Shown here one piece after another: positions 1 to 39,994 of a stretch of DNA of 39,994 bases (position 1 is the stretch's first letter; the number at the start of each line of letters is the position of its first letter). The DNA is from a virus (lineage: Duplodnaviria > Heunggongvirae > Uroviricota > Caudoviricetes): the IMG/VR virus record IMGVR_UViG_2703718828_000004, positions 1-39,994 of that record. One strand, given 5' to 3'. The notes under the pieces are model-generated. The model worked only from the letters and a program-made list of their open reading frames with translations. It ran no database searches and was not told where the DNA came from. The position numbers and the translations under genes were made by a program.

Positions 1-201
1 TTACCCATTGGCGCGGCTTAAGAGCTTATTTTTGAATTCACAATGGTCACGATATAACCATCTTGCTCGCCCGTGGATAACTTTGGCTTTTGGCAGGTCG
101 CCGGACTTAATCCGGTCATAGATGAAGGTTTTACCGAAGCCAGTATCGGCCATGATGAATTTCAAATCAACCAGTGAATCAGGTTGTAGTTCGTGTTGCA
201 T
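1..201 (-). CDS. torI: Excisionase / recombination directionality factor, TorI-like (66 aa)
   Basis: Complete 66-aa ORF MQHELQPDSLVDLKFIMADTGFGKTFIYDRIKSGDLPKAKVIHGRARWLYRDHCEFKNKLLSRANG, recalled as the KplE1/CPS-53 excisionase TorI; small winged-helix Xis size. Confidence 0.8.
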   Translation of the reverse strand: MQHELQPDSLVDLKFIMADTGFGKTFIYDRIKSGDLPKAKVIHGRARWLYRDHCEFKNKLLSRANG

Positions 202-4281: not shown

Positions 4282-4452
4282 TCAGAATGGACATGGCCCA
4301 AGGAAATAACGCTGATTTAATACTTCAGTCTTTGCCGCATTTAAAAATACGCGAACACCTTCACGATCTCCCTTCTGGCGATACATTAACGCCTGCTGCG
4401 TGTACATGCGTCTCTGTAACTTGCTCTCCTTCACTGTGGTTGCAAGTGACAT
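4282..4452 (-). CDS. Hypothetical small protein (56 aa)
   Basis: ORF MSLATTVKESKLQRRMYTQQ... with strong RBS GAAGGAGATATTC; below the track cut-off; alternative frame 4361-4546. Confidence 0.35.
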   Translation of the reverse strand: MSLATTVKESKLQRRMYTQQALMYRQKGDREGVRVFLNAAKTEVLNQRYFLGPCPF

Positions 4453-5511: not shown

Positions 5512-5838
5512 TCAAATAAGTGGTTTGCTGCCTAATTTCATTTTCTGGCGACCAACACAAGTTACACCCATTTCACTGCGTGGCTTGCTGTACCATGTGC
5601 GCTGATTCTTGCGCTCAATACGTTGCAGGTTGCTTTCAATTTGTTCGTGGTATTCAGCCAGCACCGTAAGGTCTATCGGATTCAGTGCGCTTTCTACTCG
5701 TGATTTCGGTTTGCGATTCAGCGAGAGAATAGGGCGGTTAACTGGTTTTGCGCTTACCCCAACCAACAGGGGATTTGCTGCTTTCCATTGAGCCTGTTTC
5801 TCTGCGCGACGTTCGCGGCGGCGTGTTTGTGCATCCAT
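5512..5838 (-). CDS. N: Antitermination protein N (lambda-type, 108 aa)
   Basis: MDAQTRRRERRAEKQAQWKAANPLLVGVSAKPVNRPILSLNRKPKSRVESALNPIDLTVLAEY... is near-identical to lambda N from memory, including the Arg-rich motif. Confidence 0.9.
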   Translation of the reverse strand: MDAQTRRRERRAEKQAQWKAANPLLVGVSAKPVNRPILSLNRKPKSRVESALNPIDLTVLAEYHEQIESNLQRIERKNQRTWYSKPRSEMGVTCVGRQKMKLGSKPLI

Positions 5839-34257: not shown

Positions 34258-35302
34258 ATTTCAGCGCCCGACGCTGGCAGAAAATATCAGTATGCTCCGT
34301 AACGATTTATTCGCCAGGCTGGACGTCAGCGACACGCTCCGGCGCATGGATGAAGACGTGCGGGCAAAGGTGTATGCGGCGGCGCTGCATACGGTTTACG
34401 GTTACATCGATTATCTGGCAATGAACATGCTGCCTGACCTGTGCGATGAGTCCTGGCTGGCGCGACATGCTGCGATGAAACGGTGTCCGCGCAAGGGGGC
34501 CACGGCTGCCAGCGGGTATATGCGCTGGGAAGGTGTCAGCGATGGCCTGAAGGTGACCGCCGGGAGTGTTATTCAGCGCGATGACCTGGTTCAGTACACG
34601 GCAACTGCCGATGCAACCAGCTCCGGTGGTGTCCTGCGCGTGCCGATCGCCTGCTCAAGTGCAGGTGCGGTCGGTAACGCTGACGACGGTACGGCATTAA
34701 TCCTGGTCACGCCGGTGAATGGTCTGCCGTCTTCCGGTGTGGCTGACACCCTTACAGGCGGATTTGATACTGAAGAGCTGGAAACGTGGCGCGCCCGCGT
34801 CATTGAGCGGTATTACTGGACGCCGCAGGGCGGGGCTGACGGGGACTATGTCGTCTGGGCTAAAGAAGTGCCCGGCATTACCCGCGCATGGACATACCGT
34901 CACTGGATGGGAACGGGAACTGTCGGTGTGATGATTGCCAGCAGTGACCTGATTAATCCCATTCCGGAAGAATCAACGGAAACGGCGGCAAGACAACATA
35001 TCGGGCCACTGGCCCCGGTGGCAGGCTCTGATTTGTATGTATTCAGGCCGGTGGCGCATAAAGTGGATTTTCATATCCGCGTGACGCCGGACACACCGGA
35101 AATACGGGCTGCCATCACCGCAGAGTTGCGTTCGTTCCTGCTGCGTGATGGTTATCCTCAGGGAGAACTGAAGGTATCGCGTATCAGTGAGGCGATTTCC
35201 GGTGCGAACGGGGAATACAGCCATCAGTTGCTTGCCCCGGCGGACAATATCTCCATTGCAAAAAATGAACTGGCGGTTCTGGGGACGATTTCATGGACGT
35301 GA
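34244..35302 (+). CDS. Baseplate J-like protein (Mu gp47-like)
   Basis: Position and size (352 aa). Confidence 0.65.
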
Positions 35303-35877
35303 CAAACGATGATTACATCCGCCTGTTATCGGCACTGTTGCCGCCCGGTCCTGCATGGTCAGCCAGCGATCCGGCGATTGCCGGTGCGGCACCTTCATTA
35401 ACCCGCGTTCATCAGCGTGCGGATGCCCTGATGCGGGAGCTGGATCCGCGCACCACCACTGAACTGATAAACCGCTGGGAGCGTCTGTGCGGTCTGCCGG
35501 ATGAATGTATTCCCGCAGGGACACAGACCCTTCGCCAGCGTCAGCAACGGCTGGATGCGAAGGTTAATCTGGCGGGCGGCATCAATGAGGATTTTTACCT
35601 TGCACAGCTTGCTGCCCTGGGCAGACCAGACGCCACTATCACGCGATACGATAAAAGCACGTTCACCTGCTCATCGGCCTGTACTGACGCAGTGAATGCG
35701 CCGGAATGGCGGTATTACTGGCAGGTCAACATGCCAGCCGCCACCAACACCACCTGGATGACATGTGGCGATCCCTGTGATTCAGCACTGCGTATCTGGG
35801 GTGACACCGTTGTCGAGTGTGTGCTTAACAAACTCTGCCCGTCGCATACCTACGTAATTTTTAAATATCCGGAGTAA
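35293..35877 (+). CDS. Tail protein, Mu gp48 / YmfQ-like (DUF2313)
   Basis: Position immediately upstream of the tail fibre; 194 aa, Cys-rich C-terminal part. Confidence 0.55.
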
Positions 35878-35880
35878 TCC

Positions 35881-36636
35881 ATGCATCGTATAGACACGAA
35901 AACCGCGCAGAAGGATAAGTTCGGCGCGGGTAAGAACGGTTTTACCCGTGGTAACCCCCAGACTGGCACGCCTGCCACCGATCTGGATGATGACTACTTT
36001 GACATGTTGCAGGAAGAACTTTGTAGCGTTGTTGAGGCATCCGGTGCCAGTCTGGAGAAGGCGCGGCACGACCAGCTGCTTACCGCGCTTCGTGCGCTGC
36101 TGTTAAGCCGCAAGAATCCGTTTGGCGATATCAAATCTGATGGTACTGTGCAAACGGCTCTCGAAAACCTTGGTTTGGGAGAAGGCTCAGCGTTACCCGT
36201 TGGTGTACCTGTTCCGTGGCCTTCAGCCACTCCGCCAACAGGCTGGCTGAAATGCAATGGTGCGCCTTTTTCTGCCGAAGAGTATCCGGAACTGGCAAAA
36301 GTTTATCCGACAAATGAATTGCCAGATTTACGTGGTGAGTTTATTCGTGGCTGGGATGATGGGCGTGGAGTGGACAGTGGGCGAGCGTTATTGAGTGCTC
36401 AGAGCGATACGCTGCAAAATATTACAGGTAGCTTTTGGGATATGACCACGGGGCCAAATAATAATACTGTCGGCGCATTTACCTCTTCAATAGTGACACC
36501 AAATCTCGCATCAATTGCGACAGGTGGTAAATTTAAACAGGCGAATTTTTATTTTGATGCATCACGTGTTGCCAGAACATCAACGGAAACACGTGCGCGA
36601 AATATTGCATTTAACTTTATCGTGAGGGCTGCATAA
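35881..36636 (+). CDS. Tail fibre protein (251 aa, collar-like C-terminal region)
   Basis: Conserved fibre N terminus [26 protein letters not shown] and collar-like motif [34 protein letters not shown]. Confidence 0.7.
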
Positions 36637-37238
36637 TGGATAACGCTGTATTAAATAGCGAGCTTATTGCCACGAAGGCGGGGAATATTACCGTCTATAG
36701 CTATGATGGTGAAACTCGGGAATATATTTCCACTTCAAATGAATATCTTGCCGTTGGTGTCGGCATTCCGGCATGTTCCTGTTTAGATGCCCCTGGCACA
36801 TATAAGGCTGGTTATGCAATCTGCCGTTCTGCAGATTTTAACTCATGGGAATATGTGCCAGACCATCGCGGTGAAACGGTCTATAGCACCGAAACAGGAG
36901 AATCAAAAGAAATCACCTCTCCGGGTGATTACCCTGAAAATACAACCACTATCGCCCCATTAACGCCATATGATAAATGGGATGGTGAGAAATGGGTGAC
37001 AGATACTGAGGCACAGCATAGCGCCGCAGTAGACGCGGCAGAAGCACAGCGCCAGTCACTGATTGATACTGCAATGGCCTCCATCAGTCTGATTCAACTG
37101 AAATTACAGGCCGGACGGAAGCTGACGCAGGCAGAAACAACCAGACTTAACGCTGTGCTGGATTACATTGACGCGGTGACGGCAACAGATACCAGCACCG
37201 CGCCGGATGTCATCTGGCCTGAACTGCCGGAGGCGTAG
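36636..37238 (+). CDS. Tail fibre assembly protein (Tfa, 200 aa)
   Basis: Follows the fibre gene; Tfa-like C terminus TSTAPDVIWPELPEA. Confidence 0.7.
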   Translation: MDNAVLNSELIATKAGNITVYSYDGETREYISTSNEYLAVGVGIPACSCLDAPGTYKAGYAICRSADFNSWEYVPDHRGETVYSTETGESKEITSPGDYPENTTTIAPLTPYDKWDGEKWVTDTEAQHSAAVDAAEAQRQSLIDTAMASISLIQLKLQAGRKLTQAETTRLNAVLDYIDAVTATDTSTAPDVIWPELPEA

Positions 37239-37317
37239 GCCATTCAATATCTGGCGCACCGGAAGTATCGACCAGTTCCAGTGCGTCCAGATAATCCAGC
37301 CACGAATTATATTGCAT
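37210..37317 (-). pseudogene. 3' fragment of a second, inverted tail fibre assembly gene (tfa-prime remnant)
   Basis: Reverse strand encodes ...MQYNSWLDYLDALELVDTSGAPDIEWPTPPAVQAR, a Tfa C terminus, preceded by an in-frame stop; convergent with the intact tfa. Confidence 0.5.
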
Positions 37318-37319
37318 CA

Positions 37320-37403
37320 GGAGTTCTTCGCCAGAAGGTGGCGATCATCTATGATGTTGGCGTATCGACTCTGTATAAGAAGTTTCCGGTCGGAGATAAA
37401 TGA
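37320..37403 (+). pseudogene. 3' fragment of a Pin/Gin/Cin-type DNA invertase (C-terminal HTH only)
   Basis: Frame encodes ...SGVLRQKVAIIYDVGVSTLYKKFPVGDK, matching invertase C termini (Gin ...QVALIYDVALSTLYKKHPA); in-frame stop upstream at 37236-37238. Confidence 0.55.
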
Positions 37404-37592
37404 AACCGCAGCACGTCGTATGCAAGCACGAGCCACGGCTGGCTGTCTAACTTTCGATAGTGCGAGTATTGAATGATTTCCAGCCGCTACCGATTTTACT
37501 ATGTTTTCAGTAGAACACTTAGACAAAACTGAGGCGCACAAAGCTTTGCACTGGATTGCAAGACTTTGTGCTATTCGATAGTTTAAGGTCGC

Positions 37593-38750
37593 TCACTCTA
37601 CCTTTTCATCAAGCCAGTCCGCCCACCACTGCATCATCTCCCTGCGCTTATCGAGATACTGCGCATGGTTGTAAATACCGCGCACAGATCCGCCGTTGGC
37701 ATGTGCCAGTTGCACTTCAATAGCATCAGCAGGCCATTCGTGCTCGTTCATAATCGTGCTGAATTCATGCCTGAATCCGTGACCGCTTTCCAGACCCTCA
37801 TAGCCGATTCGTTTGATCACAAGTAATACCGCGTTCTCGCAGATTGGCTTCTTCTTATCGTTACGCCCGGCAAAAACAAACTCTGATACTGGTTTGGTGA
37901 TGGAGCTTAACGTAGTGAGAAGTTCAACCACCTGGTCCGACATCGGGACCACATGAATCTTGCGTCCCTTCATCACACTGGCGTCGATAGTGATAATCCT
38001 GTTTTCAAAATCGACGTTATTCCATAGCATAGAACGAAGCTCTTTCGTTCTTAGGGCTGTGTAGCGTAAAACTTTGGTCGCAATGAGCGATACGATACTA
38101 CCTGAAAATGTTGCCAGTGCTTTATTGAATGCCGGGATCTGGTCTGCAGGAAGAAACGGGAAGTTCTTCTTGCGGTATCCCTTCATGGCGTCAGCAAGGT
38201 CAGGTGCCGGGTTATATTTAGCCCTGCCGGTGACAATAGCGTAACGGAAAACCTCGCCGCATCTTCTGCGTGCTTTGTTGGCTCGCTCCATTGCACCGCG
38301 ATCTTCAAATCTGCGGATTACTTCCAGCAGTTGCATCGGCTCAATATCCTGAATCTCAAGACCGCCGATGATGGGTAAAATGTCGTCATCAAACATTTTT
38401 GCAAGTTCATTTGCATAGCCTACTGACCAGACTTGCTTCTTGTGCTCGTACCATTCCTTGTAAATCGCACTAAAGGAATTGTTGTTAGACGAAGCCTTTT
38501 TCGCCTTTACCGGATCGATGCCGACCGAGATGTCTTTCCTCGCAGTCCATGCTTTATCCCTTGCCTCCTGCAAAGTCATTAGCGGATATTTCCCGACAGT
38601 CAGGATTTTCTCCTTACCGTCAATCTTGTAGCGAAGCTGCCAGACCTTTTTTCCGGATACAGGGACATAAAGGTACAGGCCATTACCATCGAGAAGGCGG
38701 TATGGTTTTTCTTTCGGCTTTGCTGCTTCAATCTGCTTAACGGTGAGCAT
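37593..38750 (-). CDS. intS: Tyrosine integrase, P4-type (IntS-like)
   Basis: N-terminal MLTVKQIEAAKPKEKPYRLLDGNGLYLYV typical of P4-family integrases; C-terminal catalytic region with HxxR and Tyr; adjacent to the tRNA 3' end. Confidence 0.85.
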   Translation of the reverse strand: MLTVKQIEAAKPKEKPYRLLDGNGLYLYVPVSGKKVWQLRYKIDGKEKILTVGKYPLMTLQEARDKAWTARKDISVGIDPVKAKKASSNNNSFSAIYKEWYEHKKQVWSVGYANELAKMFDDDILPIIGGLEIQDIEPMQLLEVIRRFEDRGAMERANKARRRCGEVFRYAIVTGRAKYNPAPDLADAMKGYRKKNFPFLPADQIPAFNKALATFSGSIVSLIATKVLRYTALRTKELRSMLWNNVDFENRIITIDASVMKGRKIHVVPMSDQVVELLTTLSSITKPVSEFVFAGRNDKKKPICENAVLLVIKRIGYEGLESGHGFRHEFSTIMNEHEWPADAIEVQLAHANGGSVRGIYNHAQYLDKRREMMQWWADWLDEKVE

Positions 38751-38911
38751 GGGTAAAAATCCGGTGGGTAAAATTATTTTATCCACTTTTTACCCGTCAT
38801 GGAGTGCGGCTGTCAACGATCTGACGCGAACCATTACGAACTGTGAATCTACGGAAGGCTTGATATTCAGGGGATTTTGCGGACTGGTACGGATGGGAGC
38901 GAACTGATAAA

Positions 38912-38986
38912 TGGTGTCCCCTGCAGGAATCGAACCTGCAATTAGCCCTTAGGAGGGGCTCGTTATATCCATTTAACTAAGAGGAC
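38912..38986 (-). tRNA. argW: tRNA-Arg (anticodon CCU)
   Basis: Reverse complement gives a 75-nt tRNA: acceptor stem GTCCTCT/AGGGGAC, T-loop GGTTCGATTCC, anticodon loop CTCCTAA, 3' CCA encoded. Confidence 0.9.
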
Positions 38987-39061
38987 AATGCGGCATGAGT
39001 ATACCCGCTAATGGAGTGCGGGGTAAGTACGCTGCCGCTCGATTGCTTAAACCCTCGCCAT

Positions 39062-39994
39062 TTATGCCGGGTTTTTATAATTTTTCTTAATGTTTTCCGC
39101 ACGTTCTGCTTTTTGGCGTGCTTCTGCTTTACGCTTATTGCTCATGTCGTTACGAATCTGTGCATGACTCATTAACGCGAAGATAAAGGTGCCGCCGCAG
39201 ATGTTCCCCGCTAAAGTAGGTAGTGCGAAGGGCCAGATGAAATCGCTCCAGTGCAGCGTACCGTTAAACACCAGATAGAGGATTTCAACAGAACCGACCA
39301 CGATATGGGTGGTGTCACCCAGGGCAATAAGCCAGGTCATCAATATAATCACCACAATCTTTGCCGCACCCGCTGCAGGAAACATCCAAACCATAGTGGC
39401 GATCAGCCAGCCGGAAATGATCGCGTTGGCAAACATCTCGCTGGGGGTGTTCTTCATCACATCCATGCCGATTTTGACAAATGCATCGCGAGTTTCTTCA
39501 TTGAAGATAGGCATATATTCAAATGCCCACGCCGCAATACCTGTCCCGAGAATATTACCCAGCAGCACGACGCCCCATAACCGTATAAGTAAGCCGACGT
39601 TGCTCATTGTCGGTTTTTGCATGACGGGTAGTACCGCAGTCACGGTATTTTCGGTAAATAATTGCTGGCGGGCCATAATGACGATAATAAAACCAAAGGT
39701 ATAACCGAGATTCTCCAGCAAGAAGCTGCCCGGCACACCTTCCAGTTCGACATGAAATATCCCTTTTGCCAGTAACGAAGCGCCCATCGACAGACCCGCC
39801 GCAATGGCTGACCACAGTAGCGCCATTGCGTCGCGTTCCAGCTCTTTTTCACCATCCTGGCGGATATGCTCATGAATTGCCATCGCCCGGGAGGGGAGTC
39901 GGTCTTCATCTATTTCTATTTTTTTGCCGCGCTCTTTTTCTTCGCTCTCAACTTCAATTTCGTCGCTGTGTTGATCAATTTTGTCGTTGTCCAT
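39062..39994 (-). CDS. yfdC: Formate/nitrite transporter family inner-membrane protein (YfdC-like, 310 aa); host gene
   Basis: Polytopic membrane protein with an acidic N-terminal extension; recalled as YfdC, the neighbour of argW in E. coli. Confidence 0.7.
   Translation of the reverse strand: MDNDKIDQHSDEIEVESEEKERGKKIEIDEDRLPSRAMAIHEHIRQDGEKELERDAMALLWSAIAAGLSMGASLLAKGIFHVELEGVPGSFLLENLGYTFGFIIVIMARQQLFTENTVTAVLPVMQKPTMSNVGLLIRLWGVVLLGNILGTGIAAWAFEYMPIFNEETRDAFVKIGMDVMKNTPSEMFANAIISGWLIATMVWMFPAAGAAKIVVIILMTWLIALGDTTHIVVGSVEILYLVFNGTLHWSDFIWPFALPTLAGNICGGTFIFALMSHAQIRNDMSNKRKAEARQKAERAENIKKNYKNPA

Follow-up and report, generated by a model that had tools for sequence, protein, structure and literature searches.

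The region downstream of the intact tail fibre genes of this prophage is, with a probability of roughly 0.93, the inactive scar of an invertible tail-fibre switch of the e14 P-segment type. The window, by which is meant the whole analysed stretch of 39,994 nucleotides, contained an intact fibre gene and an intact tail fibre assembly gene (tfa), behind which lay the 3' end of a second, inverted tfa (hereafter tfa') directly joined to the 3' end of a pin invertase gene (Table 1). The earlier note on this DNA had suggested the remnant of a Mu G or e14 P type switch. The e14 P type was retained, with matches to StfP, TfaP, TfaE, StfE and PinE, and the Mu G segment was set aside.

Table 1. Positions of the features of the window and of its DNA matches to the e14 prophage of E. 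coli K-12. For the DNA matches the strand is given relative to e14.
Feature	Position	Strand	Evidence or description
torI	1-201	-	100% identical to K-12 TorI; left end
DNA match, K-12 e14 (L010) ymfQ and N-terminal part of stfP	35000-36185	same strand	96% (DNA)
Tail fibre gene, intact, 251 aa	35881..36636	+	Pfam Collar, E 8.7e-15
Orphan left crossover site, CTCTCGAAAACC-TT-GGTTTGGGAGAA	36158..36183		in frame inside the fibre gene (coding ...LENLGLGEG...)
DNA match, K-12 e14 (L010) start of stfE (5624-5421)	36165-36368	reverse	91.7% (DNA)
DNA match, K-12 e14 (L010) end of stfE, tfaE and tfaP 3' end (5170-4436)	36586-37320	reverse	93.5% (DNA)
Tail fibre assembly gene, intact, 200 aa, TfaE type	36636..37238	+	Caudo_TAP, E 3.6e-33
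tfa' remnant (second, inverted tfa, TfaP type)	37210..37315	-	last 34 codons and stop
DNA match, K-12 e14 (L010) pinE 3' end	37306-37404	same strand	84% (DNA)
Deletion junction, 5-bp microhomology ATTGC	37311..37315		base-by-base comparison with L001
pin invertase remnant	37311..37403	+	codons 155-184 and stop, helix-turn-helix only
Spacer, pin stop to intS stop	37404..37592		normally follows intact pin
intS, CPS-53/KplE1-family tyrosine integrase, 385 aa from ATG at 38750	37593..38750	-	99.2% to K-12 IntS
argW, tRNA-Arg(CCU), prophage attachment site	38912..38986	-	ARAGORN; Rfam tRNA 63.4 bits

Gene remnants and the intact fibre genes

The reverse strand of the window contained an open reading frame of 35 codons, MQYNSWLDYLDALELVDTSGAPDIEWPTPPAVQAR, at 37210-37317. 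When compared by blastp, residues 2-35 of this frame gave 91% identity to residues 104-137 of the 137 residues of K-12 e14 TfaP (E about 1e-21), and the same value of 91% to residues 114-147 of 147 of the tfa' products of two intact loci, L001 and L002. The fragment also matched the end of the Pfam family Caudo_TAP (positions 102-131 of 131, E 5.1e-9) with a score of 36.8 bits against a cut-off of 22.1 bits. A full-length Caudo_TAP protein has a variable N-terminal part and a conserved C-terminal motif, and by Pfam the reverse-strand fragment is not such a protein, while the forward gene at 36636-37238 is, covering positions 1-131 of the family. The tfa' remnant is convergent with this intact tfa and overlaps its 3' end by 29 bp, an arrangement that is the same in intact loci (4324-4352 in L001). 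The opening ATG of the 35-codon frame is a product of the fusion and is not ancestral, and within the fragment the conserved YNLWLDYL has become YNSWLDYL through a derived L-to-S change. These comparisons bear out the earlier description of the reverse strand as encoding the last 35 or so codons of a second, convergent Tfa.

On the forward strand, positions 37311-37403 encode IASGVLRQKVAIIYDVGVSTLYKKFPVGDK followed by a stop codon, corresponding to residues 155-184 of the 184-residue Pin. Over these residues the identity was 97% with Pin from strain PEC122, 93% with that from L001 and 83% with K-12 PinE. It passed the Pfam threshold for HTH_7 with 26.0 bits against a cut-off of 23.8, and HTH_7 was the only domain obtained from Pfam, the resolvase-type catalytic domain with its active-site serine being absent from the fragment. 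A tblastn search with PinE gave no second PinE-like sequence beyond this fragment in the whole window. Because HTH_7 is present and the catalytic domain is missing, the fragment appears to be a homologous remnant and not a functional member of the Din family of invertases (Pin/Gin/Cin/Hin), which agrees with the initial identification of a Pin/Gin-type C-terminal helix-turn-helix lacking its catalytic domain. A derived P-to-L change was also observed here, converting the conserved GVPRQK to GVLRQK. The assignment would have fallen had the two fragments shown no significant similarity to Tfa or invertase sequences, and both matched their families significantly.

The product of the intact fibre gene is divided into a constant part (residues 1-105), which is 97% identical to K-12 e14 StfP, and a variable, receptor-binding C-terminal part, which carries the Phage Tail Collar domain and has 54% identity to K-12 StfE. 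Over all 251 aa the fibre was 95.6% identical to that of strain CT02, which has the same length. The fibre had earlier been described as short; the length of 251 aa was correct, but it is the normal full length for the family and not part of the decay, the corresponding proteins having 251 aa in CT02, 249 aa in L001 and 209 aa in K-12 StfP. A truncated fibre gene was ruled out by orthologues of 249-251 aa. The product of the adjoining tfa was 93.5% identical to K-12 TfaE over 200 aa and is the chaperone for the expressed fibre tip. Alignment of these genes with the K-12 reference shows a P-type segment frozen in the opposite orientation, in which the StfP constant part is combined with a StfE-like tip and TfaE.

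The deletion junction and the crossover sites

The window was collinear over 35001-37315 with L001 (NZ_CM135961), L002 (NZ_CP081698) and K-12 e14. Homology to the intact loci stopped inside tfa' at 37315 and restarted inside pin at 37306-37311. The alignment to intact loci that had been recommended at the outset mapped the endpoints of the deletion to the sequence ATTGC in tfa' and in pin, which occurs twice in L001, at 4425-4429 (in tfa') and at 5753-5757 (in pin), and once in the window, giving 1,328 bp missing relative to L001. The size of the deletion varies with the alternative tip that is used for comparison, and was estimated at about 1.15 kb against segments of the e14/PEC122 type, the exact ancestor being unavailable. 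Relative to the intact loci the window lacks about 110 tfa' codons, the complete alternative fibre tip together with the right crossover site, a short spacer upstream of pin, and pin codons 1-154 (the 5' 462 nt). No alternative fibre C-terminal segment was present on the opposite strand in the window, where the second tfa consists of its last 34 codons only. The comparison supports a single internal deletion, which would have joined the 3' ends of tfa' and pin to each other. From the ATTGC overlap and the lack of a crossover-site-like core at the junction we infer a microhomology-mediated deletion, with some reserve because a microhomology of 5 bp is short. Aberrant recombination mediated by Pin was ruled out as the cause, as the junction is without an AAACC-NN-GGTTT core.

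The left crossover site was identified in the window as the 20-mer AAACCTTGGTTTGGGAGAAG at 36165-36184. This 20-mer is the longest inverted repeat in each intact locus, where it sits inside the fibre gene and has an inverted partner just upstream of pin, about 1.7-1.9 kb away (about 1.85-1.9 kb in L001, L002 and the PEC122 locus, L004). Two inverted copies of AAACC(T/A)(T/A)GGTTTGGGAGAAG are found in the intact loci, compared to one in the window. The repeats published for the e14 P segment are TTGGTTTGGGAGAAGG and CCTTCTCCCAAACCAA (PMC12529663), and the first of these was found as an exact match at 36170-36185. A second crossover site was not found when both strands of all 39,994 bases were searched with the 20-mer allowing up to 3 mismatches, and inverted-repeat detection over 35800-37600 gave no residual right crossover site. 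Of the residual inverted repeats that had been proposed as a check, the left site is therefore present and exact within the fibre gene, and its right partner was not found; the window does not have the two inverted sites flanking a segment that its intact relatives have. Since there is one site, no invertase and no alternative tip in the window, inversion is impossible within the module and the fibre is locked. The earlier proposal of a fibre held in one orientation was thus upheld by the orphan site and the lack of an invertase in the window.

In the proposed course of events, the ancestral module would have begun with the constant part of the fibre gene, the left crossover site, tip A and tfaA, continued with tfaB and tip B on the opposite strand, and ended with the right crossover site and pin. 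Pin, as a serine invertase of the Din family, would have inverted the stretch of roughly 1.8 kb enclosed by the two crossover sites, which are inverted relative to each other. With every flip the constant N-terminus of the fibre would have been joined to a different receptor-binding tip, accompanied by the Tfa chaperone that matches this tip. The deletion probably occurred while the segment was oriented to express the StfE-like tip and TfaE. A single event of about 1.15-1.33 kb, between ATTGC in tfaB (TfaP type) and ATTGC at pin codon 155, would have removed about 110 tfaB codons and all of tip B, along with the right crossover site and the first 154 codons of pin, the catalytic domain among them. 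In the Gin, Hin and Cin systems a Fis-dependent recombinational enhancer acts in cis and lies in the 5' portion of the invertase gene, and by analogy the enhancer would also have been lost with the 5' 462 nt of pin. The parts left over would be the orphan site, the intact fibre with its TfaE-type chaperone, a tfaB tail of 34 codons and a pin helix-turn-helix tail of 30 codons. Nothing in such a module would invert any more, and the phage would make one fixed fibre. The scar is likely to have arisen once in an ancestor and then to have moved between unrelated phage backbones, presumably by homologous recombination within the conserved DNA of tfa and downstream of pin.

The e14 P segment is a substrate in trans for the invertases PinE, PinQ and PinR (PMC12529663), and there is a small chance that the orphan crossover site may remain a substrate for Pin-family invertases of other prophages in the same cell. 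If this were true, recombination with the crossover sites of another prophage could swap fibre tips between prophages or invert large chromosomal segments, and the module, although locked, would retain a latent capacity to act as a recombination partner. Selection on the conserved scar module itself is another, related possibility.

Related switches and the spread of the scar

The e14 P segment of K-12 (stfP-tfaP / tfaE-stfE, pinE) agrees with the pieces in the window in gene order and sequence, and its published left inverted repeat is identical to that of the window. The segment is complete in K-12 and still inverts (PMC4272514, PMC12529663). Compared with e14, the segment in the window is held the other way round and is shorter by about 1.15-1.3 kb, the losses including the right repeat and 154 of the 184 pin codons. 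When 5,426 complete E. coli genomes were searched by megablast, many loci covered the query in 3-4 pieces spanning 2.9-4.0 kb, and these loci were annotated as phage tail protein, tfaE, an opposite-strand tail fibre assembly protein, an opposite-strand fibre fragment, and pinE. An intact switch was also found in strain PEC122, directly beside intS-argW, providing the related prophage with a complete system that the earlier note had advised looking for. More distant systems, which follow the logic of the ancestral switch, are the G segment of Mu (Gin) and the C segment of P1 (Cin). There a serine invertase flips a segment with alternative fibre tips and Tfa chaperones, and of the two inverted crossover sites that bound this segment one lies inside the fibre gene. 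These are distant from the window in sequence, the pieces of the window being of the e14 type, and they are functional whereas the window holds a remnant.

Several other loci have decayed in different ways. The K-12 prophage CPS-53 (KplE1) has the same integration module at argW (TorI 100%, IntS 99.2%) and contains a relic of the same kind, the pseudogene tfaS. This truncated tfa converges on yfdK, an intact tfa on the other strand, and the DNA is 94% identical to that of the window over 37100-37315. This arrangement is the mirror image of the window, as in CPS-53 the TfaP-type yfdK is intact and the TfaE-type tfaS is the stub. The place of pin is taken by the gtrABS-like yfdGHI and yodE, with no pin fragment left. 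HK97 and HK106, which are viable lambdoid siphoviruses with a lambda-type att site, carry the same relic downstream of tfa, consisting of the last ~18 tfa' codons and then the last four pin codons, and have kept ~100 bp (HK97) and ~170 bp (HK106) of the pin-downstream DNA. Their deletion or replacement differs from that of the window and is larger, with about 65 bp of unrelated sequence between the pieces. In strain MLI023K1 a different pin truncation was observed, with an internal stop and a serine acetyltransferase gene preceding it, and in strain CUPS SST 5/1 the end of the prophage retains no more than a tfa' stub of 129 bp. Because MLI023K1, CUPS SST 5/1, K-12 CPS-53 and HK97/HK106 show these other decays, loss of the e14-type fibre switch is recurrent and commonplace.

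The junction of the window was examined using a 104-bp query, which was fully covered in 3 of the 5,426 complete E. coli genomes. In NZ_CP191804 (E. coli EcE.CRE.COL) the scar lies beside intS-argW, as in the window; in NZ_CP031706 (E. coli R1) it lies beside pphA and in NZ_CP182387 (E. coli Br_190_kylling) beside ybhB/bioA, and in both of these the forward tfa is itself truncated. The junction was identical base for base in the three genomes, with 96-99% identity across the 104-mer. PGAP annotates the two fragments in all three as 'tail fiber assembly protein' and 'helix-turn-helix domain-containing protein', both 'incomplete; missing N-terminus'. The upstream backbone of these prophages differs from that of the window in baseplate, which is of the DUF2612 type, and in fibre, and two of the three have other integration sites. 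An exact-pattern scan also located the junction in 2 IMG/VR contigs, of which one has the intS context and the other ends in the manner of the pphA-type copy. The exact junction was not found among GTDB species representatives, which fits a rare allele. The scar is thus a known kind of feature, a product of ordinary prophage decay that has already been annotated automatically in other genomes.

Given that prophages at three different places in the chromosome and two viral contigs share the identical junction, the simplest reading is that the scar is an inherited, horizontally exchanged module, and that the deletion did not arise in the prophage of the window. The block from about 37175 to 37470-37570 would then have been exchanged among phages at the conserved tfa 3' end and in the pin-downstream DNA. 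It is very unlikely that the same deletion arose independently at a recurrent hotspot formed by the ATTGC or ATTA-ATTGC microhomology. Although such a hotspot would be consistent with the extended imperfect similarity at the junction (AATTATATTGC on one side and GATTAATTGC on the other) and with the variety of phage backbones and integration sites in which the scar occurs, five base pairs are too short to make several identical deletions likely. The flanks of the scar copies are near-identical (96-99% across the junction 104-mer and about 91-96% over the longer block that they share), while the intact tfa'/pin alleles are 6-16% different from the window, and the different endpoints of the other decayed loci (MLI023K1, CUPS SST 5/1 and HK97) argue against a single preferred breakpoint.

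Within this inherited module the tfa' and pin fragments were judged to be neutral relics. No Shine-Dalgarno sequence or ribosome-binding site was read before either fragment frame, and promoter sites for the fragments were no commoner than in shuffled sequences (5 observed, 4.7 expected). Derived non-synonymous changes affecting positions that the intact genes conserve, present in both window fragments and, as a Q-to-L change in Pin, in the scar copy of CP182387, were counted as support for what would be neutral drift. It is extremely unlikely that the fragments have been kept for a function, whether as a helix-turn-helix peptide that would bind crossover sites and so damp Pin-family inversion at other places in the cell, as a Tfa C-terminal micro-protein or as antisense on tfa. 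The conservation of the module across several unrelated phage backbones and the creation by the fusion of an ATG for the 35-codon tfa' frame could be read in this way, but HK97/HK106 keep 18 tfa' codons and 4 pin codons and other loci keep other pieces, indicating that no particular peptide has been preserved, and PGAP labels both fragments as pseudogenes. The 4 synonymous and 2 non-synonymous differences in the pin fragment among four aligned scar copies could hint at constraint; however, the same synonymous variants are present in the intact pin of PEC122, and recombination with intact copies can explain them. Invertible, repeated tail-fibre regions are often mis-assembled from short reads, but a chimeric junction concealing an intact switch, an artefact against which the earlier note had warned, is virtually out of the question because three complete genomes, each assembled independently, and two metagenomic viral contigs have the very same junction, and a mis-assembly across an inversion would not fuse inside pin codon 155.

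For annotation, the fragments are best described as pseudogene remnants, one of tfaP and one of pinE, and the fibre as an e14-type fibre that is fixed and does not switch. The locus provides a clean, base-resolved example of the loss of a host-range switch, through a single microhomology deletion that kept one crossover site. Its distribution indicates that such a scar then travels by mosaic recombination among unrelated temperate phages, which include prophages with Mu-like tails, relatives of HK97 and other backbones of the myovirus type. The e14 P segment has recently been reported to give rise, on inversion, to the anti-phage protein StfE2 (PMC12529663); a locked copy cannot supply an inducible function of the StfE2 type, which may matter in comparisons between strains.

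The prophage and its integration end

The window is a piece of E. coli chromosome and contains a nearly complete prophage whose integration module is of the CPS-53/KplE1 type, with IntS adjoining argW and the excision factor TorI (a recombination directionality factor) at the other end. The Pfam domains of IntS were Phage_integrase, Phage_int_M and Arm-DNA-bind_3, and the DNA from yfdC to argW was 99.9% identical to that of K-12, with 99.7% identity for YfdC. The far attachment site is just outside the window. A 16-bp copy of the argW T-arm at 221-236 was ruled out as this site, as torI lies to its left and the K-12 copy is likewise upstream of torI. The early genes between the two ends encode a lambdoid Erf-like annealing protein, a CI-like repressor, an O-like initiator and a DnaB-like helicase, and further genes encode the terminase, a major head protein of the HK97 type, the tail sheath and the baseplate, which is Mu-like and has analogues of gp44-48 and YmfQ. 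The 251-aa tail fibre and the 200-aa Tfa are the last late genes of the prophage.

The spacer between the pin and intS stop codons was homologous to the pin-downstream DNA of L001 (to 37507), of L004 (throughout) and of HK97/HK106. Rfam over 35800-39100 gave argW and two sub-threshold chance matches, with no known RNA in the spacer, and the fold of 37400-37600 was no more stable than that of shuffled sequence (z -0.73), one local hairpin aside. An inverted-repeat search gave a hairpin with a 14-bp stem at 37534-37572, with a terminator-like match on the minus strand, and this hairpin is possibly the terminator of intS.

Variation between the tail-fibre module and intS

The prophages at argW were found to differ in the slot that separates the tail-fibre module from the 3' end of intS, when the window was compared with strains PEC122 and MLI023K1 and with the K-12 prophage CPS-53. 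From the sequence comparison, this slot looks like a hotspot of cargo exchange.

What four argW prophages carry between the fibre genes and intS
Prophage	Position	Slot content
PEC122 (L004)		intact pin switch
K-12 CPS-53 (L006)		gtrABS-like yfdGHI and the toxin gene yodE
MLI023K1 (L005)		serine acetyltransferase and a different pin stub
Window	37239-37592	scar (fused remnants of inverted tfa' and pin)

A strong hairpin (GCACAAAGCTTTGCA...TGCAAGACTTTGTGC) is located at 37534-37572, 20 bp beyond the intS stop, and is terminator-like on the minus strand. The homology to the different phage backbones represented by K-12 CPS-53, HK106 and the prophage of E. coli strain Br_190_kylling begins or stops at this hairpin, which may therefore be a mosaic boundary as well as the intS terminator. 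An 89-codon open reading frame in a third frame (37207-37476, plus strand) begins within the 3' end of tfa and spans the scar. This frame matched no protein family in its own right and is very probably spurious.

Switch relics and fibre variation

The classical phages HK97 (L011, 3611-3839) and HK106 (L012, 3599-3900) also retain a remnant of this switch, shorter than that in the window. It lies between tfa and sib/attP and is annotated in neither record. In both phages approximately 18 codons of inverted tfa' are followed by about 65 bp of unrelated DNA and then by the last four codons of pin, with the relic ending in pin-downstream sequence of ~100 bp in HK97 and ~170 bp in HK106.

At the centre of the variable region of the fibre gene, positions 36369-36585 are without a DNA match to stfE, the alternative fibre tip gene of K-12 e14, while both flanks match stfE at over 91%. 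The same fibre variant is carried by strain CT02, with 95.6% identity at the protein level. The segment has the appearance of a receptor-binding sub-domain swapped within the fibre tip.

The prophage and the argW T-arm copy

The T-arm of argW (38926-38941) is duplicated exactly over 16 bp (GGAATCGAACCTGCAA) within the prophage, at 221-236, directly upstream of torI, and K-12 CPS-53 carries the same copy at the equivalent position (L006, 12276). This copy was rejected as the far attachment site; the real far site lies beyond torI, outside the window. The copy could be a binding element for the integrase or for TorI, or the remnant of an old att site.

Positions 1-38750 comprise a near full-length relative (about 39 kb) of the 10-kb cryptic prophage CPS-53 of K-12, with an identical TorI and an IntS that is 99.2% identical. 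The prophage brings together lambdoid early genes, an HK97-type head, a Mu-like contractile tail and an e14-type fibre, and may be an inducible phage of the KplE1 family.
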